Positions 35,002 to 56,139 of a stretch of 64,000 nt of DNA are shown in pieces. The translations under genes were made by a program, and so were the position numbers. How positions within the stretch are numbered: the stretch's first letter is position 1; the number at the start of each line of letters is the position of its first letter. The notes below the pieces were generated by a model. It saw only the letters and a program-made list of their open reading frames with translations. It had not been told where the DNA came from and ran no database searches. This DNA comes from Oscillospiraceae bacterium (lineage in GTDB: Bacteria; Bacillota; Clostridia; Oscillospirales; Oscillospiraceae), in contig JAFQZI010000035.1 in assembly GCA_017406005.1 (NCBI GenBank), positions 35,823 through 99,822 on the forward strand. The letters run 5' to 3'.

Positions 35002-35049
35002 GCATTAGTGTAAAACTATCCTAAATCGTAATTACTTAGTCCCAGCCAA

Positions 35050-35149
35050 CCCACTTTAATGAGCTCGCGACGGAGCACAAAATTGAGGTACAATGTTAAC
35101 TTCGCGAGCCATAGAATGCAGTTATTACGAAGCGCCTGATCAGTTACAT
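35050..35149 (+). repeat. structured intergenic element, copy A (core hairpin 35063-35109 plus right module)
   Basis: GCTCGCGACGGAGCACAAAATTGAGGTACAATGTTAACTTCGCGAGC, then ATAGAATGCAGTTATTACGAAGCGCCTGATCAGTTACAT. Homologous to the copies at 45939, 48194, 50472 and 53952. Confidence 0.85.
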
Positions 35150-36067
35150 TAATTCTATAAATGCTTTTGGAAGAAATCGAATCAGATCTGAAGGGGCAAG
35201 CGAATACTCTCCCGTTTCTTTACGGGCCAGATCTCCCGCCCGCCCGTGCAGCCATGCAGCACGGCGCACGGCAGATAGAGGCTCAAATCCCTGCGCCAAA
35301 AGAGCGCAGAGAATGCCGCAAAGGACATCGCCGCTGCCTCCTTTTGCCATTGCTGCATTTCCCATCGGATTTACGGAAACAGCATCTCCTTTGCAGATCA
35401 AAGTGCCGTGACCCTTCAGCAACAGGATAACATCCGGATGAATCTGCCCGAAGTGCAGAACCCCTGCCAGCCTGCCTTTTTCCAGAATTCCGCCGATTCT
35501 GCGAAATTCCCCCTCATGAGGCGTCAGGATCAGCTGCGTACGGCATACAGAAAAAAGATCCGGCATCCTGCCGAGAATGGTCAGTGCATCCGCGTCCAGA
35601 ACAAGCGGGCATTCTGCTCTTTTGATTACGGCAGCCAGAATCTCTGCGCTGCTGTTACCTGTTCCGAAGCCCGGCCCGATAACGCAGGCATTTGCACGCT
35701 TCAAAGCCGGGAGGATGATGTCAAGCGCTGCCGGCGAAGCACAGCCGGATTCGGAAGGAAGCGGCGTTACAACCGACCCGTCACAACGGGAGGCGACAAT
35801 CGTATAAATGTTGTCCGGAACCATCAGTGTTGTCAGCCCAGCTCCGCTTCTTTCGCAGGCGTTAGCTGCCAGCACCGGAGCACCGGAAAACCCGACAGAT
35901 CCTGCAACGATCAAAGCCCGGCCGTAGCTGTATTTGTGCGTATCGTTTTTCCGCGGGGGAAGTATAAGGTCTTCTTTTTCCGGCAGAAGTACTTTTACAT
36001 TTCCAGCGGAGTCCGTATCCCGGTCCGGATAAAGCGCTTTATATTTTTCTAAAGACAGGTTTTTCAT
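35144..36067 (-). CDS. ADP/ATP-dependent NAD(P)H-hydrate dehydratase (YjeF C-terminal type)
   Basis: Motifs HKYSYGRALIVAGS and GGSGDVLCG. Dehydratase domain only, with no epimerase domain. Confidence 0.85.
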   Translation of the reverse strand: MKNLSLEKYKALYPDRDTDSAGNVKVLLPEKEDLILPPRKNDTHKYSYGRALIVAGSVGFSGAPVLAANACERSGAGLTTLMVPDNIYTIVASRCDGSVVTPLPSESGCASPAALDIILPALKRANACVIGPGFGTGNSSAEILAAVIKRAECPLVLDADALTILGRMPDLFSVCRTQLILTPHEGEFRRIGGILEKGRLAGVLHFGQIHPDVILLLKGHGTLICKGDAVSVNPMGNAAMAKGGSGDVLCGILCALLAQGFEPLSAVRRAAWLHGRAGDLARKETGEYSLAPSDLIRFLPKAFIELM

Positions 36068-36870
36068 CCATCCGTACTCCGTGATGCCTGTTTAACATTT
36101 TCATCCTTATGCGCAGTGAGCTCAAAAGGAGTCGTAACGAGAAGCATATAGATTCCGAGAATAGCAACACTCGGTGCCTGATACAGCAGGGGATAAGGAA
36201 TCCAGCGGTAAAAAACCTCAAGCAGGAAGTTTCCTTCTGTTTCCACGGTGTAAAAGTAATTAGCATTTGCGTACACACCGGTAAAGCGCAAAAGCATATT
36301 GAAGCCGAAAAGGCATACCATAATCAGTACGGCAGTCAGGAGAGTACGCGGCAGATCACGGTATCTCGGGCGGTAGAGGCCGAAGGTGACGAGAGCCAGC
36401 CCTTCCATTACAATCATGAAATGTGTTCCAAAGTAGCCGATCATTCGAGGAAGGAAGATAGAATAACCGCTGAAGCCGGTTCCGGGCATTGCAAGTGCCA
36501 TGAGCCCTCCGAGCGGAGCACAGAAAAAACAGAAGCACATGATCGCTCTGTTTTTCTTCAGCACGGCAATCGGAATCAGGATCATATTGATGTTGCACAT
36601 ATGCAGCGGCAGCTCGCCCCACCAGTTAAATCCGCCGAATTCTGCCTTGATAATATTATAATCGCTGTCGAGAGAGAGTGCGTATTTATAGATAAAAAAC
36701 CCGACAAGTGTGATGAGGCAGGCCGTGACCAGCACGGTCTGCTTTGCTTTTTCGCTCTTCCCTTTCAGCAGCAGGCTCGCAGCTGTAAGAAGCAGCAGAA
36801 AGAGCGCAAACACAGCATTGAACAGCGTGTTAAACGGTCTCAGGATCCAGAAATCGGCAGACAGATCCAT
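36064..36870 (-). CDS. YwaF/TMEM164-like integral membrane protein (TIGR02206-like)
   Basis: Multi-pass membrane protein with an LPLHMCN motif. GGAGG RBS 10 nt upstream of the ATG at 36870. Confidence 0.55.
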   Translation of the reverse strand: MDLSADFWILRPFNTLFNAVFALFLLLLTAASLLLKGKSEKAKQTVLVTACLITLVGFFIYKYALSLDSDYNIIKAEFGGFNWWGELPLHMCNINMILIPIAVLKKNRAIMCFCFFCAPLGGLMALAMPGTGFSGYSIFLPRMIGYFGTHFMIVMEGLALVTFGLYRPRYRDLPRTLLTAVLIMVCLFGFNMLLRFTGVYANANYFYTVETEGNFLLEVFYRWIPYPLLYQAPSVAILGIYMLLVTTPFELTAHKDENVKQASRSTDG

Positions 36871-36983
36871 AATCCGATATCCTCCGAAAATACGATAAAA
36901 ATAATATATCACGGCCATTGCTTAAATTCAACATTCCATTTATAATAGTGCCATGAATACTCATTTCAGAGAGGAATGCAACT

Positions 36984-37643
36984 ATGCAGTATCGCTATGT
37001 ATTTTTTGATATGGACGGGACCCTTCTGGACACTCTTGACGATCTGCGGGATTCCGTCAACACCATATTGTCAAATTACGGCCTTCCCCCAATTACACGC
37101 TATGAAGCGGCGCATTTTCTCGGCAATGGAGCAAAGCATCTTGTGCACTGTTCCCTGAAGCAGCAGGTTTCACCTGAGCAGGAAGAAAAGATCCTTGAGG
37201 AATATAAAGTCTGGTATCAGGATCACTGCAGGATCAAAACCGCACCCTATCCCGGTGTGATGGATCTGCTTGCGCATCTGAAGGCAGCCGGCTGCCGTAT
37301 GGCAGTGGTTTCCAACAAGCCGGATCCTGCCGTCAGCGAACTCAATGAGTACTTTTTCGGTGATCTGATTGAAACAGCTATAGGGGAAAAAACAGGAATC
37401 CACCGCAAGCCCGCGCCGGATACCCTTCTGGAAGCCATGCGCCTGCTTGAAGCGGATCGGAAAGAGTGCGTCTATGTCGGTGATACGGAGGTCGACCTGC
37501 AGACAGCTGAGAATGCCGGTCTCAATTGTATCTGTGTTGCCTGGGGTTTTCGCAGTGTGGAAGAGCTTCAAACCGCCGGTGCCGATACGATCATCAATAC
37601 CGCCGACGAACTGGAGAAGCTGATCACAGGGGGTTCTTCTTGA
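36984..37643 (+). CDS. HAD-IA family hydrolase (phosphoglycolate phosphatase-like)
   Basis: Motif I FFDMDGTLLDT, motif II VSNK, motif III/IV K...GDTEVD. Confidence 0.8.
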   Translation: MQYRYVFFDMDGTLLDTLDDLRDSVNTILSNYGLPPITRYEAAHFLGNGAKHLVHCSLKQQVSPEQEEKILEEYKVWYQDHCRIKTAPYPGVMDLLAHLKAAGCRMAVVSNKPDPAVSELNEYFFGDLIETAIGEKTGIHRKPAPDTLLEAMRLLEADRKECVYVGDTEVDLQTAENAGLNCICVAWGFRSVEELQTAGADTIINTADELEKLITGGSS

Positions 37644-38334
37644 TTTGTGCCCATCTGCGCGGATAGTTTTCCGGTGTTTTCCGGATCTTCCGGACCAGCA
37701 GTGCACTGTGCTGGATCTCTGTCCCTGGAATGGTATAGAGAAAACATTTTTCCGTTTTCCCGCCGAGTGCCTTAATGGCCGGTTTGGCCTGTTCCAGCTC
37801 TTCTTCATAGGAAGGCCCTTTCATGGCGAGGAAAAGCCCTCCCTCTTTCACAAACGGCAGGCAGAGCTCTGCCAGCACATTGAGCCCCGCCACTGCGCGG
37901 GAAGTCACAACGTCCGCCGTTTCCCGGTAGTCTTTGGCGGCTTCCTCCGCACGCGCATGCACGCATTCCACGTTACCAAACCCGAGCATGCTGCAGGTTT
38001 CCCGCAGAAAGGCAATGCGCTTGTCCAGGCTGTCGAGCAGCATCAGATTCATTTCCGGGCAGGCAATCTTCAAAGACAGACCCGGAAACCCGGCACCCGT
38101 CCCGATATCATAGACGGTTTTGCCGCGCATTTCCGCAAAACACAGAAGAGCCGCACAGTCAAGAAAATGCAGCTGTGCAACCTCTGTTTCTCCGGTGATG
38201 GCCGTGAGGTTCATCACCCTGTTTTTTTCTTCCAGCGTATGAAAGTACAGACGGTAACGCGCAAGCGCTTCCTCCGTCAGTGGCAGGCCGAGCGTTTCAA
38301 AGCCGGTCTGCAGAACTTCTTCCAGCGTGTTCAC
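37624..38334 (-). CDS. rsmG: 16S rRNA (guanine527-N7)-methyltransferase
   Basis: GidB-type motifs DIGTGAGFPG and LLDSLDKR. Its 3' end overlaps the HAD gene by 20 nt in convergent orientation. Confidence 0.9.
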   Translation of the reverse strand: MNTLEEVLQTGFETLGLPLTEEALARYRLYFHTLEEKNRVMNLTAITGETEVAQLHFLDCAALLCFAEMRGKTVYDIGTGAGFPGLSLKIACPEMNLMLLDSLDKRIAFLRETCSMLGFGNVECVHARAEEAAKDYRETADVVTSRAVAGLNVLAELCLPFVKEGGLFLAMKGPSYEEELEQAKPAIKALGGKTEKCFLYTIPGTEIQHSALLVRKIRKTPENYPRRWAQIKKNPL

Positions 38335-38594
38335 GCTTCTTGTTCCGTTTTCGCCTTAATCTGCTTGAGTGCCTGTGCAAGCTGATCCGGGCAGGAGGTG
38401 CTTTTAAAACCGCAGCGGATGCCGTCCATCTTTTCAATGGCAGTGTCAAGGTCCATGCCTTGCACCAGGCGGGCTACGCCCTGGCCGTTGCCTGAGCACC
38501 CCCCGATAATACGCACATTCTTGATAATATTGCCCTCTGTCTCTATTTCCATCTGCTGGGAGCAGACACCTCTCGGCCTGTATGTGAATTCCAT
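38331..38594 (-). CDS. TSCPD-domain protein (TIGR03905-like)
   Basis: 87 aa with GGCSGNGQG and KSTSCPDQLA motifs. AAAGGAA RBS before the ATG at 38594. Confidence 0.75.
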   Translation of the reverse strand: MEFTYRPRGVCSQQMEIETEGNIIKNVRIIGGCSGNGQGVARLVQGMDLDTAIEKMDGIRCGFKSTSCPDQLAQALKQIKAKTEQEA

Positions 38595-38831
38595 AATCTG
38601 TTTCCTTTCGGATAATCCATATTTCTGCACACAGAATATACCATGGCGGTGCAATTCTTTCAACACGAAAGTTATTTTCCTTCTGTTTTCTTATTTCAGG
38701 CTCCTGCATTTCTGCCTGCCTGAATTCAAAGAAAATTCACTTTACAAACATGAGGAGTTATGTCATAATGCCATCAGCAGAACAACCTGTTAAAAACTTT
38801 TAAAACTATTAATGGAAAAGGAGAAGTTCTA

Positions 38832-39398
38832 ATGAAAAAATGGGTTTGCCCTGTATGCGGCTATGTTCACGAAGGCGATCAGCCGCCTGAGAAGTGCCCA
38901 GTCTGCAAGGTTCCCGGCAGCAAGTTCACGGAGGTCGTAGGAGAGATGACGTGGGCTGCTGAGCATGTTGTGGGTGTCGGCAAGCAGTTTGGGGAAGATG
39001 TTCCCGCTGAAGTGAAAGAGGAGATCATTGCAGGGCTGCGCTCCAATTTTGAAGGCGAGTGCTCCGAAGTCGGCATGTATCTCGCAATGGCACGTGTTGC
39101 CTTCCGTGAAGGCTATCCGGAAGTCGGCATGTACTGGGAGAAGGCCGGTCTGGAAGAGGCTGAGCATGCTGCCAAGTTCGCCGAACTCCTCGGCGAGGTT
39201 GTGACAGACAGTACGAAGAAGAATCTCCAGATGCGTGTTGATGCCGAAAACGGCGCCACCCAGGGAAAGACGGACCTTGCAAAGCTCTGCAAGAAGTACA
39301 ACCTCGACGCTCTGCATGACACCATTCATGAAATGGCTCGTGACGAAGCCCGCCACGGCAAGGCATTCAAGGGCCTCCTTGAAAGATATTTCAAGTAA
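38832..39398 (+). CDS. reverse rubrerythrin (N-terminal rubredoxin-like domain, C-terminal di-iron ferritin-like domain)
   Basis: CPVCGY...CPVCK at the N-terminus, followed by ExxH-type di-iron ligands ([25 protein letters not shown]). Confidence 0.85.
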
Positions 39399-39439
39399 TT
39401 CCGATTTTTTATTTCATATCTGAGAAAGGAGCACTGAGA

Positions 39440-39574
39440 ATGGTATACGTTTGCAACGTCTGCGGCTGGGAATACGACGAAGACGAGCAGGGCACCAAGT
39501 GGGAAGATCTCCCTGATGATTTCGTCTGCGAAGTCTGCGGTGTCGGCAAGGAAGATTTCTCTCCCGCTGAATAA
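39440..39574 (+). CDS. rubredoxin (short, 44 aa). Not in the ORF track because it is under 60 aa.
   Basis: Hand translation gives [44 protein letters not shown]. It has two CxxCG knuckles, and AAGGAG lies 8 nt upstream. Confidence 0.85.
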
Positions 39575-39590
39575 TAGCAAAATAAAAGAG

Positions 39591-39621
39591 CAGGGTGCCG
39601 GTTTTCCGACACCCTGTTTTT
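39591..39621. terminator. bidirectional terminator between rubredoxin and cls
   Basis: Stem CAGGGTG/CACCCTG, flanked by an A-run upstream and TTTTT downstream. Confidence 0.65.
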
Positions 39622-39623
39622 CA

Positions 39624-41216: not shown

Positions 41217-41366
41217 TCCTCTGCCCCCTTTCGGTTTTATGGGCTATCGCCCCCTGTTTGCCTATACTAACACAAAGGCCTGAACTTGGCAACTGTTTTG
41301 ATACGGTTGCATTCCTCTCTGCGTCTTGGTACAATGATCAAAAAAAGAGGGAACGGAGCTTACACC

Positions 41367-42224
41367 ATGGATCAGGAAGTTCTTTTTCATATCAGGCCTC
41401 TCTTCGCCGATGCATTTGCCTGCAAGGCAGGGGAGTGCCGTCACAGCTGCTGCAGAGGCTGGGAAATTGACATCGATGAAAACACCCTTTCACACTATCG
41501 GCAGTTGTCCGGCGCCTGGCGCGAGCGAATGGATGCTGCCATCTGTGAGGATAAATACGGCGCCCATTTTCGCCTCACATCGGAGAATGCCTGCCCTTTT
41601 CTCCGTTCCGACGGCCTGTGCGACCTGATCCTTGCTTTCGGAGAGGATGCCCTCTGTGATATATGCGCCCTGCATCCGCGCTTTTATGAGCTGATCGGGC
41701 AGTTTGAGCTTTCCGGCCTCGGGCTGAGCTGCGAAGCGGTCTGTGAACTTCTCCTCTCGGAAAACGGAGAACTTTTGTACTTCTGTGAAGAAACGGAAGA
41801 ATCCTTTCCGATCTTCGCTCTCCTCTCCCGCCTCGGCTTTCCGGCAGAAAATCATTCTCTGTCTTTTCTCCCTGTTGAAGATCCCGCCCGAATGCTTGCC
41901 CGGCTGGAGAAAACCGAGCCCATTGATGAAGCCTGGCCGCTCGAGCTTGCCCGCATCCGTCGGGACTGGGCTGAGCACCCTGTTCCGCTGCCGATCGGGC
42001 CGCGATACGACAGGATTTTTTCCTATCTCCTATTCCGCGTCCTGGAGGAAGTTCCTCTCCGCGGGCTTGATGCCGTCCTTTCCTATGTGCGTGACGGAGT
42101 GAGCTTTGTCGCCCTGCATGATGCCCTGTACGGCGAGGATGCGGAAGCGATGAGGCGCTGGTCGGAACAGATCGAATACAGCACCGAAAATATCCCCTAC
42201 CTGCTATCCTGTTTCGAGGCCTGA
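41367..42224 (+). CDS. FliB-like lysine-N-methylase / Cys-rich metal-binding protein
   Basis: CKAGECRHSCCRGWEIDID and CPFLRSDGLCDL motifs, as in the flagellin lysine methylase family. GGAG RBS before the ATG at 41367. The ORF-track TTG at 41286 is not supported. Confidence 0.65.
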   Translation: MDQEVLFHIRPLFADAFACKAGECRHSCCRGWEIDIDENTLSHYRQLSGAWRERMDAAICEDKYGAHFRLTSENACPFLRSDGLCDLILAFGEDALCDICALHPRFYELIGQFELSGLGLSCEAVCELLLSENGELLYFCEETEESFPIFALLSRLGFPAENHSLSFLPVEDPARMLARLEKTEPIDEAWPLELARIRRDWAEHPVPLPIGPRYDRIFSYLLFRVLEEVPLRGLDAVLSYVRDGVSFVALHDALYGEDAEAMRRWSEQIEYSTENIPYLLSCFEA

Positions 42225-42271
42225 GAAGGGAAAACTGCTACAGGCCTAAGAAGGGAAAACTGCATTTCTCC

Positions 42272-42300
42272 TTGAAGAAAAGGGAATTCTGTGGTATGAT
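42272..42300 (+). promoter_or_regulatory. candidate sigma-A promoter for the 42342-45100 gene pair
   Basis: TTGAAG, 17-nt spacer, TATGAT. Confidence 0.45.
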
Positions 42301-42341
42301 ATACTATCCCGTAACAGGTTCTATTGCGAGGTTGATTATTC

Positions 42342-45100: not shown

Positions 45101-45147
45101 GATTTTTCAATTCTATCCCGGGAGGTCTTCTGTTTTCCCTGGAATTA

Positions 45148-45156
45148 TGCTATAAT
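45148..45156 (+). promoter_or_regulatory. extended -10 element (TGCTATAAT) upstream of hpf
   Basis: TGnTATAAT about 80 nt upstream of the hpf ATG. The -35 is weak (TTCTGT). Confidence 0.35.
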
Positions 45157-45236
45157 AAAATCACCGATTGGTGTTTTATGTTTTCCCTTGGCAGACACCC
45201 GCAACACAATACGCAAAAAAGAAAGGAGCAACCACC

Positions 45237-45803
45237 ATGAAGTTCACATTTACCGAAAAAAGAATGGGTTCGTCCGAAGAACTAAGAGAGTATACCCGCC
45301 GCAAAGTCGGCAAGCTCGACAGGTTTTTCAAGACGGAAGCAGAGGCTTTTGTAACCTTCAGCCTTGAAAGAGGCAGATATCTCGCTGAAATCACGATCCA
45401 CAACAACGGCATGTACTACAGGGCAAGCGAGCTTACCTCTGATATGTATGCCTCTGTCGATTCCGGCGTGGCCGCTATTGAAAGGCAGATCCGCCGCAAC
45501 AAGACGCGTTTGGAGAAGCGCCTGAGAGACGGTGCTTTTGACAAAGAAAGCAGCTACGTCCCGTCGTATGCCCCTGTTGAGGCGAAGGAAGAGAAGGAAG
45601 ACGAGGAATTCAAAATCGTCCGCAGCAAGCACTTCTCCATCAAGCCCATGTCTCCGGAAGAGGCTATCCTGCAGATGAATCTCCTCGGCCATGAGTTTTT
45701 TGTGTTCAAAAACATGCAGGAAGACGATGCTGTCTCTGTCGTTTACAAGCGCAAACAGGGCGGCTACGGCATGATCTGCGACGACGGAACGCAGGAAGCC
45801 TGA
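45237..45803 (+). CDS. hpf: ribosome hibernation promoting factor, long form
   Basis: S30AE/YfiA N-terminal domain plus a C-terminal dimerisation domain (FFVFKN...VVYKRKQGGYGMI). AAAGGAG RBS before the ATG at 45237. Confidence 0.92.
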   Translation: MKFTFTEKRMGSSEELREYTRRKVGKLDRFFKTEAEAFVTFSLERGRYLAEITIHNNGMYYRASELTSDMYASVDSGVAAIERQIRRNKTRLEKRLRDGAFDKESSYVPSYAPVEAKEEKEDEEFKIVRSKHFSIKPMSPEEAILQMNLLGHEFFVFKNMQEDDAVSVVYKRKQGGYGMICDDGTQEA

Positions 45804-45814
45804 ATAAACGTTTT

Positions 45815-46018
45815 TTCCCCTCTACTTTTGCTTGCGACATCGCACGAATGTACTTGCCATACTTCTTGATTCCCCTACTTTAGTTCGCGCGTCTGAGCAC
45901 CAATATATTTGAAATACGCTATATTCCACTCTACTTATGCTCGCGACGGAGCATTAAAATCGAAGTACAATGTTGCCTTCGCGAGCCCTGGTATGCACCA
46001 ATTACAAGTTGACTGACC
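45815..46018 (+). repeat. structured intergenic element, locus B: three tandem ~55-nt units, with only the last intact (core 45939-45986)
   Basis: Units begin near 45815, 45870 and 45924, each with a TTCC(C/A)CT(C)TACTT... left end. The core reads GCTCGCGACGGAGCATTAAAATCGAAGTACAATGTTGCCTTCGCGAGC. Confidence 0.85.
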
Positions 46019-46119
46019 AAAAAAGATTAAAAATCCATCAACCCTATTGAAGTTCCCGCGTTTTCGTTGTATAATCTCTTATCTCTATGAAAGAAATCTA
46101 GCAGGAGAGTAATTGACTT

Positions 46120-48078
46120 ATGGCTGACAAAGAAAAGAAGTCCGCTTCCGCCGGGAAGACGGACTATACCAAAATCATTGCAATCGCTCTTGCAGTCTGT
46201 GCCATCATTGCGCTGATTCTCGGCATCAATCTTGGCAATGTTTCCGGTAAGCTGAAGGAAAGCGTCAATGAAGCTGCTGAGCTGCAGGAAACCGTAACCC
46301 AGAAGGAAGAAGAAATCAAAACAATCGCCGCGGAGAAAGAAGAAGCCGTTGCTGCTGTCGTAGCGGAGAAGGAAGAGGCTGTTGCAGCTGTCGTTGCCGA
46401 GAAGGAAGAGGCTGTTGCAGCTGTCGTTGCCGAGAAGGAAGAAGCCGTTGCAGCCGTCGTGGCCGAAAAGGAAGAGGCCGTCGCCGCCGCTGTTGCGGAA
46501 AAGGATGTTGCCGTAGCTGAAAAAGAAGAGGCCGTCTCCACTCTGAAAATGTATAACGAGGAGCCTGATACCTACGTTAAAAAAGAATTAGAGAAACAGA
46601 TGGCCGAAAAGGAAGCTGCTTTCCAGGCTGAAATCGAAGCAATGAAGGCCGACGCGAAGGAAGCTGCCGCCGTAGCGGAGAAAAAACTCACTGACCTCGC
46701 TTACGATAAAGGCATTGAGTTGAACAATGCCCTTGCCGAGCATGAAGAAGCTCTGACGGTTGCCTTCGCTGCCGACAAGCAGGAAGCTCTCGATGCTGCC
46801 GCAGCTGACAAGGCAGAAGCTCTTGAAGCCGCTGCTGTCGAGAAGGAAGAAGCCGTTGCCGCTGTTGTAGCCGAGAAAGAAGAAGCTCTCGAAGCTGCCG
46901 CAGCTGATAAGGCTCAGGCGCTCGAAGCTGCAGCCGCCGATAAGGAAGAAGCTGTCGCTGCCGTCGTTGCGGAGAAGGATGAAGCTGTCGCAGCCCTTAC
47001 AGCTGAGAAAGAGGAAGCAGTCGCAGCCCTCACAGCCGAGAAGGAAGAAGCCCTTGAAGCTGCTGCTGCCGACAAGGCTCAGGCCCTTGAAGAAGCTGCA
47101 ACCGATAAGGCCCAGGCTCTCGAAGAGGCCGCTGCCGACAAGGCAAAGGCTCTGGATGAAGCTGCTGCTGACAAAGCTCAGGCTCTGGAAGAGGCTGCTG
47201 CCGACAAGAAGGCCGCTCTCGAAGAAGCTGCCGCCGACAAAGCTCAGGCTCTGGAAGAAGCCGCAGCCGATAAGAAAGCCGCTCTCGAAGATGCAGCTGC
47301 CGACAAGGCTCAGGCTCTTGATGAAGCCGCAGCTGACAAGGCAAAGGCTCTTGAAGATGCTGCAGCTGACAAAGCAAAAGCTCTGGAAGAAGCCGCAGCC
47401 GACAAGGCAAAGGCTCTGGATGATGCTGCTGCCGATAAAGCAAAAGCTCTTGATGAAGCTGCTGCTGATAAGGCCAAGGCACTCGAAGAAGCCGCAGCTG
47501 ACAAGGCAAAGGCTCTGGATGAAGCTGCTGCTGATAAGAAGGCTGCTTTGGAAGAGGCCGCTGCCGACAAGAAGGCCGCCCTCGAACAGGCTGCCGCCGA
47601 GAAGGAGGCAGCTCTCCTCAAGCTCGCTGAAGAGCATGATATTGAGGTTAAGAGTATCAAGAAAGCACATCGTGCCGATCTCCTGAAGCTGAGAAAGATT
47701 CTGGAAGCTGATCTTGAGAAGATGCAGGATGAATATGAAATCACCGAAGAAGAGCTTAAAAATGCTTCCGAGGATGACACCGTCCTCATCGCAGATCTGA
47801 AAGACAGGATTGTCGGCATCAAAGAAAAGATGGCGCAGCAGGCTGCCCTGATTGAAGAGCTGAACGTGCTCCTCGGCAACCGTGGCTATGAGTATACCGA
47901 TGATGGCGATGTGGTTTACACCGTCACCAGAGGCGATACGCTTGCCATCATTTGCACCAAGTGCGGTGTTGACTACTGGAAGAACCGTGACGATATCCTT
48001 GAGGTCAACGGCCTTGATAATGAGAACCAGATCATGGTCGGCCAGATCCTCAAGATCCCCGGATGGTCCTTCGATTGA
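46120..48078 (+). CDS. membrane-anchored Ala/Glu/Lys-rich hendecad-repeat protein with a C-terminal LysM domain
   Basis: N-terminal TM segment (IIAIALAVCAIIALILGI), 6 plus 26 uninterrupted 11-aa repeats, and a LysM signature YTVTRGDTLAIIC...NQIMVGQILKIP. Confidence 0.8.
   Translation: MADKEKKSASAGKTDYTKIIAIALAVCAIIALILGINLGNVSGKLKESVNEAAELQETVTQKEEEIKTIAAEKEEAVAAVVAEKEEAVAAVVAEKEEAVAAVVAEKEEAVAAVVAEKEEAVAAAVAEKDVAVAEKEEAVSTLKMYNEEPDTYVKKELEKQMAEKEAAFQAEIEAMKADAKEAAAVAEKKLTDLAYDKGIELNNALAEHEEALTVAFAADKQEALDAAAADKAEALEAAAVEKEEAVAAVVAEKEEALEAAAADKAQALEAAAADKEEAVAAVVAEKDEAVAALTAEKEEAVAALTAEKEEALEAAAADKAQALEEAATDKAQALEEAAADKAKALDEAAADKAQALEEAAADKKAALEEAAADKAQALEEAAADKKAALEDAAADKAQALDEAAADKAKALEDAAADKAKALEEAAADKAKALDDAAADKAKALDEAAADKAKALEEAAADKAKALDEAAADKKAALEEAAADKKAALEQAAAEKEAALLKLAEEHDIEVKSIKKAHRADLLKLRKILEADLEKMQDEYEITEEELKNASEDDTVLIADLKDRIVGIKEKMAQQAALIEELNVLLGNRGYEYTDDGDVVYTVTRGDTLAIICTKCGVDYWKNRDDILEVNGLDNENQIMVGQILKIPGWSFD
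46324..46521 (+). repeat. in-frame 33-nt tandem repeat, about 6 units (VVAEKEEAVAA)
   Basis: Read directly from the DNA and the translation. Confidence 0.9.
46765..47622 (+). repeat. in-frame 33-nt tandem repeat, 26 units (AAADKAKALEE type)
   Basis: 26 consecutive 11-codon units counted by hand with no phase break. Units differ at synonymous sites. Confidence 0.9.
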
Positions 48079-48094
48079 GTAACTGAATAATGTA

Positions 48095-48127
48095 AAAAAT
48101 CCAGCCCCCAAAGGGCTGGATTTTTTC
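48095..48127 (+). terminator. rho-independent terminator after the LysM repeat gene
   Basis: Stem CCAGCCC/GGGCTGG with flanking A and T runs (AAAAAATCCAGCCCCCAAAGGGCTGGATTTTTT). Confidence 0.8.
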
Positions 48128-48180
48128 ATTTCCGGAATCTATTCGGTTCACTATTTCCCGCAAAACTTTAAAGTTCAGTC

Positions 48181-48308
48181 TTTCAAAAACTTAGCTCGCG
48201 ACGGAGCACTAAAATCGAAGTGCAGTGATGTCTTCGCGAACATCCTGACCCGCGATGATCCTTGCTTCGCACAGAATGCACTTGTTACAAAGCGCCTAAA
48301 CAGTCACA
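48181..48308 (+). repeat. structured intergenic element, copy C, long form (core 48194-48241)
   Basis: GCTCGCGACGGAGCACTAAAATCGAAGTGCAGTGATGTCTTCGCGAAC, then the insert ATCCTGACCCGCGATGATCCTTGCTTCGCA, then the right module GAATGCACTTGTTACAAAGCGCCTAAACAGTCACA. Confidence 0.85.
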
Positions 48309-49082
48309 AATCCATTCAACTGACTTCCTTAACCCCTCCAGCATATGTTCGGGGCTATAATCATAAAGCTCGGCAATAACGGGAATATTGCCGGAGAGCT
48401 CCAGTATCTCCTTTATCTTGATAAATCCGCTTCCGACCGGGCACGGATACCGCACGGTACCATCTGCAATAATTCTCCCGATATCATCCGCATTGTCGGC
48501 TTCTCTTGTCCTGTCTTTCAAGTGCATCGCACACACTCTGCTTTGAAAATGCCGAAAAGCCTCCAACTCATCTTCCTGATGCATGATGAAGTTCCCCGTG
48601 TCAAAACAGCAGTACAGCCCTGAGATGTTTGAAAGAAAGCTCTCCAGCCCCGCAACGCTGTTGTAAGGAGAATCCAGCCTGTCCATATCCTCCATACATA
48701 CCTTGATGCCGCGCTTTCGGCCATACGCCACAGCAGCCTGTACCCCGTCAAGCAATGTTTTCATTGGCCCTTCCGGATGCGTTTCCGAACAATAGGGGAC
48801 AATCAGCACATTATCCGTGTTTACCTTCACAGCAGCGTCAATCAGTTCCTTGTATCCTTCCGGGTTTCTGTCAAGATCGATCCATGCGTGCAGGCCTGAT
48901 ACGGTTACCCCTGTGTTCTCCATCACAGCGTCGATTTCCGGCATATAATCTCTCAGGCTGTCAAGACAAACATAGATCCCGTTTAGCCCGGCTTCCTGGA
49001 GCATGGCTACTGCCTCGGTCATTGTGACACCGCAGAACTCTGCCCCGGTTCGTATATTCTCATAAAAAACAGATATGTTCAT
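48285..49082 (-). CDS. sugar phosphate isomerase/epimerase (xylose isomerase-like TIM barrel)
   Basis: 265-aa TIM-barrel family pattern (HAWIDL..., CFDTGNF, HLKD). The last 7 codons plus the stop lie inside repeat copy C. Confidence 0.75.
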   Translation of the reverse strand: MNISVFYENIRTGAEFCGVTMTEAVAMLQEAGLNGIYVCLDSLRDYMPEIDAVMENTGVTVSGLHAWIDLDRNPEGYKELIDAAVKVNTDNVLIVPYCSETHPEGPMKTLLDGVQAAVAYGRKRGIKVCMEDMDRLDSPYNSVAGLESFLSNISGLYCCFDTGNFIMHQEDELEAFRHFQSRVCAMHLKDRTREADNADDIGRIIADGTVRYPCPVGSGFIKIKEILELSGNIPVIAELYDYSPEHMLEGLRKSVEWICDCLGAL

Positions 49083-49101
49083 AACTCCTCCTTTTCTCGC
49101 C

Positions 49102-49806
49102 TTACCCCTTCAACAGCCAGCCGTTATCCCCATGATAAATCATCTGTTTTGTCATGCCGCCGTCGATGCAGATGTTCTCTCCGGTGATGAAGCCTGCTTT
49201 GTCCGAACATAGATACAGCACCATATTTGCAATGTCCATCGGATTCCCGACTCTGCCTGCAGGCTGCTGGACAGCATCCGGCCCCTTATAAGTAATGCCG
49301 TTTGTGTCAATCCACCCTGGAGAGATCGAATTAACGCGTACCTTTCCGGCAAAACTCACTGCCAAAGCATGGGTCAGCGCCGCAATTCCGCCTTTTGCCG
49401 CTGTATAGCTTTCAGTCTGCGGCTGGCTCATTCTGTCCCGGGAGGAAGAGATGTTGACAATGCTAGCCCCTTTAGCAAAATACGGGGCGAATAGCTTTGA
49501 AAGGTAAAAAGGTGCAGTTATGCCTACGGCAAGGGCGTACTGAAATTCCTCATACGTGCATGTGTCAATGCCCTTCATCAGTGGTAGTGCATTGTTGATA
49601 AGATAATCTACATGACCGTATTGTTCAATCACGGAGCTGGCAAAAGCTTCCAGCGCTTCTTTGTCTGCAAGATCTCCCACGAAAGTAGTTCCTGGTGTTC
49701 TGGAAATCGTACACACAACAGCCCCGCTTTTCCTGAATTCCTCAGCTATACATTTCCCAATCCCGCGAGATCCACCTGTCACTACTGCTATTTTTCCGGA
49801 AAACAT
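49102..49806 (-). CDS. SDR family oxidoreductase
   Basis: Motifs TGGSRGIG, NNA and YTAAKGG (YxxxK). Start at MFSGKIAVV. Confidence 0.88.
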   Translation of the reverse strand: MFSGKIAVVTGGSRGIGKCIAEEFRKSGAVVCTISRTPGTTFVGDLADKEALEAFASSVIEQYGHVDYLINNALPLMKGIDTCTYEEFQYALAVGITAPFYLSKLFAPYFAKGASIVNISSSRDRMSQPQTESYTAAKGGIAALTHALAVSFAGKVRVNSISPGWIDTNGITYKGPDAVQQPAGRVGNPMDIANMVLYLCSDKAGFITGENICIDGGMTKQMIYHGDNGWLLKG

Positions 49807-49854
49807 GGCATTTATTCCTTTCACAGGTATTTTATAGCCTGATAATTTTTTCAG

Positions 49855-50430
49855 CTAGTATCCGATACTACTTAATACCTCGTTAAGGCCTTTTGCAAAG
49901 GCCGCGTGACCATTTTCCGTGAAGTGTACTCCGTCATAGGTCAGTTCAACCTTCCATTCCTCTGCATCCGCATGGAAAATCCCGAGATGTTCCGCAACAG
50001 CCTTATAAGTTTTTCCCAGCTTCCGGGAGGCATCAATGAGTTCCTGCGAAGGCACCCAGCTCCCGCGTTTCATAACCGGCGGTGAAATGAGGAGAATTTT
50101 TGTGTCCGGAAAGGATTCCTGAAGAACTCTCAGAAAACGTTCCAGATTCAAAGCGATTTCATCCACAGGCTCCTCTTCCAGCAGATCGTTGCTGCCGAGC
50201 ATGACGATGATCAGATCCAGCGGCAGATAACTACGTATGGCATCGCAGTTAATCGCATACTGATATTCCCGTGGGATGCAGAGCCCGTTCTGCCCGCAGT
50301 TGATGATCTCCCTGCCATCTTTCTGCAGAAGGCATGTCCAGCGCACTGTTTCAGGATACCTGGATCCGATGTATGACCTCGGGTCAAAACCGTAGGTATT
50401 TGAATCGCCGATACAAAGAACACGTTTCAT
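49855..50430 (-). CDS. SGNH/GDSL hydrolase family protein
   Basis: Block I CIGDSNTYG, block III GSND, block V DGVH. The ORF-track N-terminal extension (to 50571) runs through repeat copy D and is rejected. Confidence 0.8.
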   Translation of the reverse strand: MKRVLCIGDSNTYGFDPRSYIGSRYPETVRWTCLLQKDGREIINCGQNGLCIPREYQYAINCDAIRSYLPLDLIIVMLGSNDLLEEEPVDEIALNLERFLRVLQESFPDTKILLISPPVMKRGSWVPSQELIDASRKLGKTYKAVAEHLGIFHADAEEWKVELTYDGVHFTENGHAAFAKGLNEVLSSIGY

Positions 50431-50459
50431 CATAATATAATCTATTCGGTCGCATCCTT

Positions 50460-50599
50460 CCCATTTTATTAGCTCGCGACGGAGCACTGAAATCGAAGTA
50501 CAGTGTTGTCTTCGCGAGCATCCTGACGCGCGACCTGACGTACGACGATCCTTGCCTCGCATAATATGCACCAGTTACGAAACGCCTGAACAGGTACAT
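50460..50599 (+). repeat. structured intergenic element, copy D, long form (core 50472-50519)
   Basis: GCTCGCGACGGAGCACTGAAATCGAAGTACAGTGTTGTCTTCGCGAGC, then the insert ATCCTGACGCGCGACCTGACGTACGACGATCCTTGCCTCGCA, then the right module TAATATGCACCAGTTACGAAACGCCTGAACAGGTACAT. Confidence 0.85.
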
Positions 50600-50628
50600 T
50601 ATAAACAATATTCCGCCTGATGAATAGT

Positions 50629-51381
50629 TTACTTATTTGCAAGCCAATGGGCGATATTCTGCCATAATCTGCCGTAATACTTCCAGTTGCAAAGCGTCAA
50701 AGGGGCCCAGTGCGGTGCACAGTCACAGGTATAAGCCATAGTTCTTCCTTTGCCGTATGTTGCTACAGCAATGATTGGGTCGCCATTATGCTCGGCAAGC
50801 AAAGTGCTGTCTGCTTTCAGGTTTGTACTGTTGTATCCGAGCATATTCGGGATTTGTTCATCAATACCGTCAAATACAGGATGATTCGGGGCAACGATAT
50901 CAGGAGAAAACCCTTCAGGCAGTTCTGCCCGGTCATCTGACTCGTAGAATTCTACCGGCATGATTTCCTCGATTGGCGTCCTCTTATAGCGTCCTTTTCC
51001 CTCAAAGCCCATGAAAGTAAGATAGCCGCCTATCATGCAAAAACTGCCGCCGTCAGCAACGTAATCCCGTACAAGAGCAAGCTTGTTAACGGATGGGTTT
51101 CCGTGTATAAAAGTCTTTGTGGGGAGCAGGAAAGTGTTGGCACCGACGTCACTGAACATCACGATGTCATATTTCCGAAGTTCCTCTGAACTCTCCGGAA
51201 AATCAAATTCAACTCTGTGGCTCGGAATATGGGTGAAATCGATTCCGCCGGCTTCAAAAAGATCCTTCATGATATAAGCGCATTCTTCATAGCGGTAGGT
51301 AGTGAAATAATCCACACCTTTTGTCTCTGTTGTCTGGATGAACCATGATTCACCGACAAACAATACATGGATCTTATCCAT
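50629..51381 (-). CDS. GATase1-like / ThuA-like domain protein (function unknown)
   Basis: 250 aa with a class-I glutamine amidotransferase-like fold pattern (VLFVGESW..., DIVMFSDVG, GGSFCMIGG). AAGGAGG RBS. Confidence 0.5.
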   Translation of the reverse strand: MDKIHVLFVGESWFIQTTETKGVDYFTTYRYEECAYIMKDLFEAGGIDFTHIPSHRVEFDFPESSEELRKYDIVMFSDVGANTFLLPTKTFIHGNPSVNKLALVRDYVADGGSFCMIGGYLTFMGFEGKGRYKRTPIEEIMPVEFYESDDRAELPEGFSPDIVAPNHPVFDGIDEQIPNMLGYNSTNLKADSTLLAEHNGDPIIAVATYGKGRTMAYTCDCAPHWAPLTLCNWKYYGRLWQNIAHWLANK

Positions 51382-51451
51382 TTTTGCCTCCTTAATAGAA
51401 AATATAATGTTTTGGATGACTGATGTTAAACGTTTTTTCGGGTTTTAGAGA

Positions 51452-51748
51452 TTATTCCTCTTCTTCCCGGCCAATTTTCGGCATTTTAATTGTGATAAAC
51501 TGAAGCAGATGCTTCTGTTTCAATATTTTGATCATCATTTTCTCCGCCAATGTCATCTGAGCCCGCTTGATCAGGCTGTACTGTTCCACAGCGGCGAGAA
51601 CAATGGGCATATCTCCCGGATGGACTGCTGCATCCAGCAGTTTGGTTATATCAATAATCTCCTGGCCGATCTCTTTATCTATTTCCGTGCGCTCTTCCAC
51701 ATTTTTTGCGCTTTTCCATTCATTTATCAGACTGCGGTTTTGATTCAT
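51452..51748 (-). CDS. hypothetical small protein (98 aa)
   Basis: Fits the gap between neighbouring genes on the same strand and has a weak AAAGG RBS. No motif recognised. Confidence 0.45.
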   Translation of the reverse strand: MNQNRSLINEWKSAKNVEERTEIDKEIGQEIIDITKLLDAAVHPGDMPIVLAAVEQYSLIKRAQMTLAEKMMIKILKQKHLLQFITIKMPKIGREEEE

Positions 51749-51848
51749 CGTTTTCTTTACCTTTCTTCTGGCTGCGCTATTTCCGTACCCGTTTTTTGTA
51801 TCTCCTGAAGAAAATCTCTCTCTTTACAGATATTATTGCTGTAATTGT

Positions 51849-52470
51849 CTAAGAGCATTCTTCGTACACACAATCCGTGATCGCGAGAGGGAGAATGCTG
51901 TTTGCGCTATACTTTGGATTGATCCAGTCTTGAATGACATCTTCCGGCAGGATCAGGGGCATCCTGTCATGGATAAACGCAATGTCTTCACCCGGCTCCC
52001 GTGTGAGGACTACGAAATGCGGATAATTGTTTTCCAGCCGATAGAGCCCGCAGAGCCAGGTGAGCTCCTGTCCTTTCGGCATTATTGCGTATTTCTTGCC
52101 AAGATCTTTTTTTTTCGTCCGGCCGCAGGTGATGCGCCCATTCATAATACCAGGAAGCCGGAACAATGCAGCGGTGGTTCATCCACGATTCCCGAAAGGT
52201 CTTCTTTGCCATTGCGGTTTCGGAACGTGCATTGATGATCGGCCGGTTGAGGCCTTCCATATGATATCCCCAGACCATGGGGAAGACTTTCTTTCCTCCG
52301 CTTTTGCCCGTGGCGATCACAGGCACAAGGTTATCCGGATAGATTTCTCCCTGTGTGATTAATCCTTTGCTGAGCCAGTTTAAATTGTTTTCCCGCAGCT
52401 TAGAGCGTTCTGCCGCCTCGACGATCGGCCGCAGCTCAGGGGACATTTCCATATAATATCTGCAGCACAT
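51849..52470 (-). pseudogene. SOS response-associated peptidase (SRAP/YedK family) interrupted by a +1 frameshift in an A9 run
   Basis: Two overlapping ORFs (51988-52563 and 51849-52166) carry consecutive SRAP motifs: MC at the N-terminus, IINARSET and RCIVPASWYYEW in the first, then LCGLYR and IHDRMPLIL in the second. They join in frame if the T9 run at 52107-52115 (A9 on the coding strand) is shortened by one base. Confidence 0.8.
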
Positions 52471-52786
52471 AGCATAAACCCGCTTGTTCAGTTTCCTTAT
52501 GTAGGCTTTGTTTTTTGAGGAGCCAGGGGATTTCCTGTTCATAATCGGAAAAAGCCTGATCAAATTATCTCATTTCATTCGTATTACGTCAAGGGAAAAA
52601 CATCGAAGAGTATTTCTTTTCAGAATACTCTTCGATCTTGTAATATATGGGTGATTTCAAATCAACCGAAATAACGTATACTGTACCTGAAAATGGCTCT
52701 GAGTACCCGTTTTTCTTGACGAACAGAGAGCTGAGTGAGATAATACTGATAATAAGATTATCCGATAGAGGAGTATGGTTATAACC

Positions 52787-53290
52787 ATGAGTAATATAAT
52801 ATTTGTAGGTATGCCGGCATCCGGAAAAAGTACAGTAGGTGTACTTTTAGCAAAAGCTTTAGCTATGGATTTTGTAGATACAGATATTCTGATTCAAAAG
52901 AAAACAGGAAAAAGACTTGAAGAGCTCATCAGGGAAAACGGAGTTGACGGCTTTCTCCGAATCGAAGAGAAAGTATGTGCTGCGCTGGAAGCAAATGATT
53001 CTGTGATTGCCACAGGTGGGAGCGTGGTATATAGTCAGGATGCCGTGGATCATTTAAAGTCTATCGGAACGGTTGTTTATCTTCAGGTAGATTTTGATGT
53101 TTTGAAAAATCGATTGAAGGATGTTATAGAGAGGGGAGTAATCATAAAAAACGGTCAGACCTTAGAGGATTTGTATAACGAGCGAGTACTTCTTTATGAG
53201 AAATACGCAGATATCACCATACAGGAAAAAAGAATGTCATTAGATGAAACGGTTAAAGAAGTGCATAAAATTGTTGTAATGTTGAGATAA
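52787..53290 (+). CDS. aroK: shikimate kinase
   Basis: Walker A motif GMPASGKST plus DTD and GGS motifs. The ATG at 52787 is preferred over 52775 on RBS spacing. Confidence 0.88.
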   Translation: MSNIIFVGMPASGKSTVGVLLAKALAMDFVDTDILIQKKTGKRLEELIRENGVDGFLRIEEKVCAALEANDSVIATGGSVVYSQDAVDHLKSIGTVVYLQVDFDVLKNRLKDVIERGVIIKNGQTLEDLYNERVLLYEKYADITIQEKRMSLDETVKEVHKIVVMLR

Positions 53291-53345
53291 ACAAATACTG
53301 TTTGCAAAAAAAGCAGAAGCTGATATTATCTCTGACTAAAAAACA

Positions 53346-53382
53346 GCGGCCTGAAGCGGATGACAAGTCTCGCTTCAGGCCG
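53346..53382. terminator. strong hairpin, probable bidirectional terminator
   Basis: Stem GCGGCCTGAAGCG/CGCTTCAGGCCG (12-13 bp). A T6 run follows on the minus strand and TTTAT follows on the plus strand. Confidence 0.55.
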
Positions 53383-53537
53383 TTTATCGTGATGAAGAAG
53401 GATCCGCTGATCTGCATGGTTCCGGTCAGTTCCCGAGATCATCGATTACAGCCGGAGGGTATCACAGGCGTTATGCATAGAGGTTTTCTATGAAATGAAT
53501 AAAGCCGCCTGAAAAATAGCGGCTTCCGGTATGTGAA

Positions 53538-53717
53538 TTATAATGAATTTCTTGCCTGCATTTTGGAAATAAGAGTACAGGATGATCTTTTGTATTCCGC
53601 TTCTGAAATAGCGTGGTGCTCGTAGATCGTCTTCAGCATTTCCAGCTGCTTCTGCAGTAGATCATTCCTGGAGTTGATTGTCCTTGACGTTGCTTTCGCC
53701 TCTGCAATGATATCCAT
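53538..53717 (-). CDS. small SHOCT-like protein (59 aa). Not in the ORF track because it is under 60 aa.
   Basis: AGGAGG lies 7 nt upstream of the ATG at 53717. Hand translation gives MDIIAEAKATSRTINSRNDLLQKQLEMLKTIYEHHAISEAEYKRSSCTLISKMQARNSL. The tail resembles the SHOCT pattern (L..L...G.IseaEY...). Confidence 0.55.
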   Translation of the reverse strand: MDIIAEAKATSRTINSRNDLLQKQLEMLKTIYEHHAISEAEYKRSSCTLISKMQARNSL

Positions 53718-53951
53718 CGTAAAACCTCCTGATGAACATTCTTGTTATCAGCAAAATCATTATATCGAAAAAGCATCAGGAAATGAAGATGGCAAGGTTT
53801 ACAATATTCAGTTAACATAAAGTCCTTTTTTCGGCAAAACTCCAAATTGACAATGACAGGTTGTTATGCTGTGCCAGGAAACGGAAACAGAATAGTAAAA
53901 CAAAAGTTTACTGGTAAATTTTCTGTCTTTTTTTATAAGTTCAGCCTAACT

Positions 53952-53999
53952 GCTCGCGAAGACAACATTCTACTTCGCCTTTAATGCTCCGTCGCGAGC
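53952..53999 (-). repeat. structured intergenic element, copy E (core only, inverted orientation)
   Basis: The reverse complement reads GCTCGCGACGGAGCATTAAAGGCGAAGTAGAATGTTGTCTTCGCGAGC. Confidence 0.85.
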
Positions 54000-54121
54000 T
54001 AATTCCAGGTGCAAGAATGAACTGAATGGTTTAGTTTAGAAGTTTTTCTTTCCTTTTTCCCACTGTACGTTTATAATAAAAACATAACAAGCGTCAGTTC
54101 CGGAAAGGAGTTGAGAAGGCC

Positions 54122-56130: not shown

Positions 56131-56139
56131 GGTACCGCC

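Follow-up and report, generated by a model that had tools for sequence, protein, structure and literature searches.

The window analysed here, a 64-kb stretch of an Oscillospiraceae genome, is ordinary chromosome encoding CysRS, MiaB, RecA/RecX, PrmC, Era, RecO, MutS2, UvrC and RsmH, together with a Mur ligase, MraY, HPF and an ABC transporter, and the same locus is also present on several rumen-type metagenome scaffolds in ENA. One protein of the window matches, at 100% identity, an NCBI protein assigned to an Oscillospiraceae metagenome-assembled genome. It carries five copies (c1-c5) of a palindromic element that an earlier note, made from the sequence alone, had described as an intergenic family of about 48 nt. 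Four copies matched the pattern GCTCGCGA-N32-TCGCGAGC with at most two mismatches (45939-45986, 48194-48241, 50472-50519 and 53952-53999), and the fifth, of 47 nt, was found at 35063-35109 by direct reading of the sequence. None of 100 shuffled windows held four pattern matches. Covariance models run with filters off recovered exactly the same five copies, at 55-87 bits, and their other matches in the window were either the reverse strands of these sites or noise of ~10 bits. The shuffles and the covariance-model scans together indicate genuine copies that do not arise by chance and lie only within 35-54 kb. Both the positions reported in the earlier note and its statement that the first 35 kb and last 10 kb hold no copy were thus confirmed.

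We covered ~80 kb of the source genome and took the strand of c1-c4 as plus. The copies seen there cluster within one 38-kb region: a sixth lies on the same scaffold, 8 kb beyond the end of the window, with the compensatory stem GCGCGGA/TCCGCGC, and a model scan of the scaffold extension found no further copy in the 6 kb beyond the other end.

Alignment of the copies with their flanks revealed units of 100-175 nt. The element of ~48 nt stands as the core of such a unit and not as the whole of it, as similarity runs ~15 nt further on the 5' side and 40-70 nt further on the 3' side. A unit begins with a short, pyrimidine-rich leader, in which CCC is followed by A/T-rich sequence usually ending in TTA. 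The core (P1) is an imperfect hairpin of 47-48 nt with an 8-bp outer stem, a C/U mismatch and an inner stem that holds a bulged G and a conserved G.T pair. The linker 3' of P1, typically 8-11 nt long and sometimes carrying an extra module of 30-45 nt, is the most variable part. The conserved tail, GCAC-N5-TTACGAAG...CTGAWCAGKTACA (fuller consensus GCAC-N5-TTACGAAG-YG-MCTGAWCAG-KTACA), is unpaired.

Within the window, c1 is a plus-strand unit of ~108 nt at 35043-35150, with leader CAGCCAACCCACTTTAATGA, P1 at 35063-35109 and tail CATAGAATGCAGTTATTACGAAGCGCCTGATCAGTTACATT (76 bits in the covariance model); its boundaries were set from empty sites in L088 and L089 (L-numbered loci are pieces of ~8 kb from other metagenome-assembled genomes (MAGs) or metagenome contigs). 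The c2 unit (45926-46031, plus; P1 45939-45986; 87 bits) ends with the tail ...GCACCAATTACAAGTTGACTGACCAAAAAAGATTAAA, followed by AATCC. Both c3 (48136-48308, plus, ~173 nt; P1 48194-48241; 55-68 bits) and c4 (50439-50606, plus, ~168 nt; P1 50472-50519; 69-74 bits) are of a long form, with two additions: a 5' module, AATCTATTCGGT, and, inserted between P1 and the tail, a module of 30-45 nt (ATCCTGAC...GATCCTTGCYTCGCA). The parts of c3 run in the order AATCTATTCGGT module, P1, insert module ATCCTGACCCGCGATGATCCTTGCTTCGCA and tail ...GCACTTGTTACAAAGCGCCTAAACAGTCACA. These two copies have both extra modules in common, are 92% identical over a 65-nt core and are mutually closest; the extra module between P1 and the tail was also seen in L018 and L015. 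The inverted unit c5 (53917-54033, minus; P1 53952-53999; 76-78 bits) has a degenerate tail, GAACTTATAAAAAAAGACAG, and an arm of 88 nt that is 75% complementary to c4.

Mosaic, truncated and duplicated fragments of the element also occur. Alignment with the sister species showed that the spacer upstream of c2 (45806-45925, plus) is specific to the window, and it contains degenerate element fragments: by eye, against L024 and L046, ~45826-45850 is tail-like and ~45877-45915 resembles the 5' half of P1, both falling below the covariance-model threshold. The extra modules, the degenerate c5 tail and these fragments show that the build is modular and mosaic. We found no terminal inverted repeats, the ends of c1, CAGCCAACCCAC... 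and ...CAGTTACATT, being unrelated. Inverted termini of the long form were considered and found no support, as only 7 of 13 positions matched between the ends of c4.

Pairing in the core hairpin

Our final alignment contained 27 distinct copies, taken from the window and the rest of its scaffold, from three Oscillospiraceae MAGs and from metagenome contigs. Across these copies 93% of P1 cells were paired, compared with 30-50% in slid controls. Two pairs covaried, 4-52 (GC20/UA4/AU1) and 6-50 (UA21/GC5), and none of 500 shuffles reached the observed covariation score. The outer stem never varies in the main subfamily, and the inner helix is weak in several copies. Divergent copies have outer stems of GCGCGGA/TCCGCGC (L018 and the sixth copy), TTCGCGCGA/TCGCGCGAA (L024) or GCTCGGA/TCCGAGC (L018), and these compensatory changes support the pairing of P1. 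A repeated family with a conserved imperfect hairpin, as the earlier note had proposed, is therefore genuine, with covariation at the outer stem of its divergent copies. Several details of that proposal did not carry over in full. The outer arms, described as exact reverse complements, have one mismatch in c3 (GAAC); the loop, described as nearly invariant, is near-identical in c2-c4 and varies in c1, in c5 and across the family; and the pair-preserving double change CAYT/ARTG, which is present within the window, does not extend to the family, where the two pairs are unpaired in 10 of 18 and 14 of 18 copies.

Invariant arms might also mark a double-stranded DNA site at which a regulator or chromosome-organising protein binds two TCGCGA palindromes 38 bp apart. 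Such a site would fit the invariance of CTCGCGA/TCGCGAG in the main subfamily while the interior varies, the palindromic nature of TCGCGA itself and the clustering of copies within 38 kb. The divergent copies, however, change both arms compensatorily (GCGCGGA/TCCGCGC and others), preserving the pairing and not the motif. In addition, copies are found at the 3' ends of genes and hardly ever in divergent promoter regions, they are absent from syntenic sister sites, and the conserved asymmetric tail would be left unexplained. We consider such a binding site highly improbable.

The earlier note had also taken the G:T pairs as favouring an RNA transcribed in the orientation written. Pair 17-39 is indeed G.U (G.T) in 20 of 27 copies and never G-C, and pair 14-42 alternates between G-C and G-U. 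When folded as single-stranded DNA, the cores had z-scores of -1 to -3. Mean folding energies were -18.7 kcal/mol for the plus strand and -17.7 kcal/mol for the minus strand, a difference of <1 kcal/mol on average and of inconsistent sign. Strand asymmetry of folding thus lends an RNA no support: despite the conserved G.U, both strands fold about equally well.

Several other readings of the unit were tried and set aside. A second helix and pairings between linker and tail were unsupported, RNAalifold predicting P1 alone, with GCAC/GYGC 56% paired. A small protein-coding ORF (open reading frame), on either strand, was suggested by differences that look synonymous; it was rejected because two copies have 1-nt indels in the loop, which separates the two best-conserved blocks, one has an in-frame stop and the linker varies in length. 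The segment GCUC-GCGACG-GAGC resembles a tRNA D-arm, but ARAGORN detected neither a tRNA nor a tmRNA. Nor is the tail built to hold stop codons in all antisense frames, which were not enriched relative to shuffles.

Altered gene ends and empty sites

The copies had been placed, without exception, between genes. Two of them, c1 and c3, instead overlap the last codons and stop codon of adjacent minus-strand ORFs. The 3' end of c1 overlaps the last codon and TAA of ORF 35144-36067, which ends in ...KAFIELM*, compared with ...KAFMELE* in relatives; four relatives end in ...MELE* or ...LELQ*. Homology of this neighbour to its relatives stops inside the last codons, and in the window the last codon and TAA derive from the element tail. 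Similarly, the tail of c3 encodes the last seven codons and stop (CDCLGAL*) of the minus-strand TIM-barrel ORF 48285-49082, whose C-terminus reads VEWI-CDCLGAL* in the window and VEWI-VNLLKKNP* in the L082 orthologue.

Among 16 copies with assessed context, ~8 lie between convergent genes and six between tandem genes; at most one or two (c5 and L019, for which neighbour calls are uncertain) may lie between divergent genes. In most convergent cases, the stop codon of the neighbour falls inside, or at the edge of, the element tail, and the 5' neighbour is on the same strand as the element in 10 of 13 cases. Three copies (c1, c3 and L019) lie directly between the terminator of the upstream gene, bidirectional in the cases of c1 and c3, and a convergent ORF. 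Both c4 and c5 are antisense to both of their flanking genes.

Four of the five copies (c1-c4) are missing, without any replacement, from the syntenic sites of sister species. L088 and L089 (83% and 81% amino acid identity) lack c1 between the NAD(P)HX dehydratase and MraY genes, which converge there too; the spacer measures 75-79 nt, compared with 180 nt in the window, and contains the same terminator. L077-L081 (91% amino acid identity) have the same gene order, with a GATase, a convergent LysM-repeat protein, HPF and an LRR protein, and lack c2, c3 and c4. The HPF-LysM spacer is 316 nt in the window and 123 nt in the sister species. In the sister, HPF has an ordinary hairpin terminator (L077:3170-3293); in the window this terminator is replaced (45803-45925), and HPF is followed by ~225 nt of element-derived sequence. 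The stop codon of the sister GATase is directly followed by a bidirectional terminator equivalent to window 48095-48125. A broadened model (R2) found no match in any sister or related locus. The absence of four copies at syntenic sites is the pattern that would be expected of a mobile DNA repeat. Its local consequences include altered C-termini and stop codons in two proteins and the replaced HPF terminator.

The pentamer AATTC or AATCC occurs directly 3' of the unit in 10 of 27 copies, compared with a background of 13% and with 2 of 27 upstream, although the motif was chosen post hoc. AATYC is already present at two alignable empty sites, ...TTATTCC^AATTCCAT in L088/L089 and GATCC in L082. 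We tentatively regard it as the insertion target.

The direct repeats c3 and c4 flank a three-gene block (48285-50433, minus) that encodes, according to Pfam, a TIM-barrel/AP_endonuc_2 protein, an SDR and a GDSL hydrolase. L077-L081 have neither this block nor an element at the GATase1-like gene. In L082 the GATase and TIM genes are adjacent, c4 is absent, and there is no GDSL gene, SDR gene or element. The GDSL hydrolase start codon (50428-50439, minus), ~6 nt away from the c4 unit, lacks any recognisable Shine-Dalgarno sequence. Transcripts that read through c4 may be needed for the GDSL-SDR-TIM block to be expressed.

Relatives in rumen and gut Oscillospiraceae

When one genome per species was scanned with the pattern, true copies came only from Oscillospiraceae MAGs of rumen or yak gut: Ca. 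Limivicinus (six loci), RGIG9615 (three) and one other. Seven more were found in a metagenome scan, all on JAEEG* contigs. Matches in high-GC organisms, in both scans, were chance hits in coding sequence and were discarded. Covariance models then added divergent copies within these loci, some of them in direct tandem arrays. One array comprises three units with a period of ~97 nt immediately downstream of a HicB antitoxin gene (L018:721-1528), and the other three units with a period of ~90 nt immediately downstream of a HipA-like kinase gene (L024:929-2470), beside phage replication genes for a G39P-like loader and a replisome organiser. A phage or plasmid origin was dropped, as BLAST of the element against phage and plasmid collections returned no matches and three pattern scans of IMG/VR viral contigs returned chance matches only.

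Rfam 15 gave no match in the window at the gathering threshold and none over the copies at E<=5, and at E<=1 nothing overlapped the copies in four other element loci, in line with the earlier note, which had recognised no known RNA family in the element. A search of full-text literature for the element sequence and for repetitive extragenic palindromes (REPs) and REP-associated tyrosine transposases (RAYTs) in Firmicutes brought up nothing specific. Within the reach of our searches, the family is confined to rumen and gut Oscillospiraceae. The family as such is previously undescribed; the kind of genomic element it represents is already known.

Copies are much more clustered than their overall density predicts. 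Same-orientation pairs recur, at distances of 2255 (c2-c3), 2278 (c3-c4), 2106 (L007), 2183 (L011) and ~1.8-2.1 kb (L018), the first four being in nucleotides. Contigs of related strains end exactly at copies. In two loci that are 97.5% identical, the orthologous copies (L019:7200-7240 and L039:1632-1680) differ at 8 of 11 linker positions and by a 6-nt indel, and the L039 linker resembles that of another copy, in L008. This pattern suggests gene conversion between copies. Downstream of the copy in L012 (~215-260) and L070 (minus) there is a common 23-nt palindrome of the perfect type, ATCTATGAAATWTTCTCATAGAT, followed by GTTTACTCTT; lying beyond the element and a terminator, it is probably the operator or promoter of the adjacent gene, unrelated to the element.

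A candidate mobile repeat and its alternatives

We favour, with moderate confidence, the view that the five palindromes are the cores of small, non-coding, non-autonomous mobile repeats, similar to REPs and bacterial interspersed mosaic elements (BIMEs) or to miniature inverted-repeat transposable elements (MITEs), that have inserted at gene ends. This view is based on their lineage-specific presence, their polarity, a hairpin with fixed irregularities and a conserved unpaired tail, and also on insertion in ORF ends, arrays, mosaicism and assembly breaks. Units would have spread by transposition in trans, most likely through single-stranded DNA, with P1 and its irregularities acting as the recognition hairpin. 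The lack of inverted termini, polar insertion by a short motif and the conserved irregularities of the hairpin all point to such a route, which could be catalysed by a hypothetical enzyme of the HUH/Y1 type (IS200/IS605- or RAYT-like) whose gene lies elsewhere in the genome. Units would insert with a fixed polarity beside a short target, AATYC as written or GRATT on the complement. Resident copies could then recombine, giving rise to arrays, converted linkers and cassette-like rearrangements, and a copy co-transcribed with a neighbouring gene would add a stable 3' hairpin to its mRNA.

Several observations weigh against a mobile repeat. Neither a terminal inverted repeat nor a clean target-site duplication could be delimited, no duplication being seen at c1, and the AATYC target, recognised post hoc, accompanies only ~40% of copies. 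The sister species have diverged by ~10-15%, so that insertion ends are not fixed to the nucleotide, and c2-c4 may have been lost from the sister lineages instead of gained in this one. Only one hairpin, P1, is supported, and IS200/IS605 ends normally carry two; a second helix in the tail (GCAC/GYGC) is paired in only 56% of cells. The window showed no mobility gene, as the earlier note had stated: among ~50 of its ~60 ORFs, scanned with Pfam and NCBIfam and excluding the ABC-transporter operon at 55240-59806 and a few others, there was no transposase, integrase or RAYT, and none was detected in the few neighbouring ORFs scanned at other loci. With the scans covering these ORFs and no whole genome, the mobilising enzyme is hypothetical. 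Finally, L012 and L070, which are 85%-identical loci, have an orthologous copy in which only P1 is still alignable and is conserved about as well as coding sequence, and the L007b copy is invariant in three strains. Retention in L012 and L070 implies that some copies are old, and these old retained copies and the invariant L007b copy are compatible with a selected function.

Retained copies of this kind also bear on a different explanation, that the copies give rise to a structured non-coding RNA, transcribed in the orientation written (plus), with gain and loss of copies reflecting mere duplication. Candidates include sibling small RNAs, a 3'-untranslated-region element for stability or processing, and a new self-cleaving or protein-binding RNA. 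Besides the invariant L007b copy and the copies kept between 85%-identical loci, the G.U at 17-39 (20 of 27) and the alternation at 14-42 fit an RNA, as does the conservation across genera of the loop (AAUCGARGUA) and the tail (UUACGAAG). An intrinsic terminator directly follows the unit in five loci (L007a, L011/L028, L017/L046, L012 and L070), and L007b is preceded, at a distance of 45-50 nt, by a perfect extended -10 (TGTTATAAT) located just past the terminator of the upstream gene. Small ribozymes typically occur in tandem arrays with a patchy distribution, which is also what we observed. However, there is no recurrent promoter motif, and the upstream flanks share no hexamers; a sigma-70 promoter of the element's own was sought and found no support, as the sole promoter-like site near a window copy (46047-46075) belongs to the LysM gene. 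Furthermore, c1, c3 and L019 lie just past a terminator and run up against a convergent ORF, c4 and c5 are antisense to the genes on either side, units occur in both orientations with respect to genes, and folding energy is nearly equal on the two strands. The almost invariant outer stem of the main subfamily argues that sequence, not shape, is conserved, and the RNA reading must also face the four copies absent from syntenic sister sites, units that overwrite ORF ends and the lack of an Rfam match. The absence of a recurrent promoter, the occurrence of both orientations relative to genes and the empty sister sites thus go against the earlier proposal of an RNA transcribed as written, which we regard as unlikely. 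If the element is nevertheless an RNA, it would constitute a new, widespread Oscillospiraceae RNA class.

The three-gene block between c3 and c4 raises another alternative, in which P1 is a folded-DNA site for site-specific recombination like the attC sites of integrons and the block is an integrated cassette. As in attC, the hairpin is imperfect, with a fixed mismatch and an extrahelical G, and same-orientation clusters flank small sets of genes, copies being mostly in one orientation and 2.1-2.3 kb apart in five loci. The block, bounded by direct and mutually closest copies, is missing in sister species, and the arrays adjoin toxin-antitoxin genes, which are frequent cassette cargo. Nevertheless, there are no RYYYAAC/GTTRRRY core sites: unlike attC (for example, the Vibrio cholerae repeats), the element has the arms GCTCGCGA/TCGCGAGC, lacks R'/R'' cores, has a tail GTTAC that misfits GTTRRRY and is not limited to one array. 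No Phage_integrase-family protein was found in the window ORFs scanned, and no integrase or attI in these or the loci examined. Neither a solo unit in an ORF end (c1) nor a gene-free tandem array is expected of cassette recombination. The LysM gene between c2 and c3 sits at the same place in the sister without flanking copies, and the GATase and TIM genes already adjoin in L082, so the block is not one simple cassette. Overall, an attC-like site seems improbable to us.

Among other known systems, a mobile repeat of this type recalls IS200/IS605 ends, and in its habits it matches REPs and hairpin-forming MITEs. The ends of IS200/IS605 elements such as IS608 and ISDra2 have no terminal inverted repeats, carry a subterminal imperfect hairpin, normally one at each end, and are polar, with a short target. 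The element likewise lacks terminal inverted repeats and evident target duplication, conserves its hairpin irregularities, is strongly polar and adjoins a short sequence (tentatively GRATT on the complement). It differs in having a single supported hairpin that is about twice as long, a target motif in ~40% of copies and, in the element-bearing DNA scanned (window ORFs and a few neighbouring ORFs), no Y1 (HUH) transposase.

REPs are short, non-coding, imperfect palindromes of 20-40 nt that are intergenic, mostly downstream of ORFs and between convergent or unidirectional genes, and their termini can supply stop codons (PMC3733652). They are sometimes clustered, and their families are common to related species and absent from others (PMC3733652). 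The element, too, is an imperfect palindrome 3' of ORFs that supplies stop codons, forms clusters and is patchy across species. The mark of REPs is an unpaired GTAG or CGTC tag at one end (PMC3733652). By contrast, the element has no GTAG tag, its CGTC occurs only inside a paired arm on the complement, and its 5' flank is TTA, TCA or TAT. Its hairpin of 47-48 nt and its unit of 100-175 nt with a conserved non-palindromic tail of ~40 nt also set it apart from REPs, as do clusters built of direct tandem repeats where REPs form head-to-head dimers. Its host is a Firmicute (Clostridia), with no RAYT found among the ORFs scanned; the text of the REP/RAYT survey never mentions Firmicutes (PMC3733652). 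Bacterial MITE-like repeats include RUP, BOX, Bcr1, EFAR, Correia/NEMIS and ERIC (PMC3733652). The element resembles these in its ~100-170 bp, stable hairpin, position beside coding sequences, modular or mosaic build and variable presence, and differs from them in lacking terminal inverted repeats and a TA-type duplication. It thus departs from REPs, classical MITEs, attC sites and strict IS200/IS605 ends in the very features that define each of them.

A bolder reading makes the element the site recognised by a gene-capture or recombination system undescribed in Clostridia, integron-like or HUH, or else a new class of mobile structured RNA; we think this quite unlikely. Such a system would move small gene blocks, for instance GDSL-SDR-TIM and the arrays beside toxin-antitoxin genes; an RNA might process itself, with the linker carrying specificity.

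As a mobile repeat, the element could influence its hosts in several ways. Read-through transcripts would gain a stable hairpin, and direct repeats can mediate rearrangement. Copies occur at synteny breakpoints, including the borders of the three-gene insertion, and break metagenome assemblies. Proteobacteria and a few pathogens have well-catalogued small non-autonomous repeats, but hardly any are catalogued for the uncultured Clostridia dominating the rumen and gut, for which this family provides a marker of strain-level variation and a handle for finding the mobilising enzyme. If an enzyme does act on a single 48-nt DNA hairpin that has a polar tail and adjoins a short target, it would widen the range known for hairpin-guided transposition.

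Three other features of the window are of separate interest. The LysM gene (46120-48078, plus) encodes a 652-aa protein with at least 22 tandem 33-nt repeats (11 residues, rich in Ala, Glu, Lys and Asp) and a C-terminal LysM domain; its length is 641 or 652 aa between strains and 627 aa in the sister species. ORF 59941-60852 (plus), which has no Pfam match and only a weak TonB-like NCBIfam match, contains at 60010-60153 a repeat with a 12-nt period that is rich in Pro, Thr and Glu (TPEP-like). Finally, ORF 41286-42224 (plus), also without a Pfam match, matches the NCBIfam model for flagellin lysine-N-methylase (FliB) at 139 bits and adjoins two unannotated ORFs and a TPR/LRR protein.

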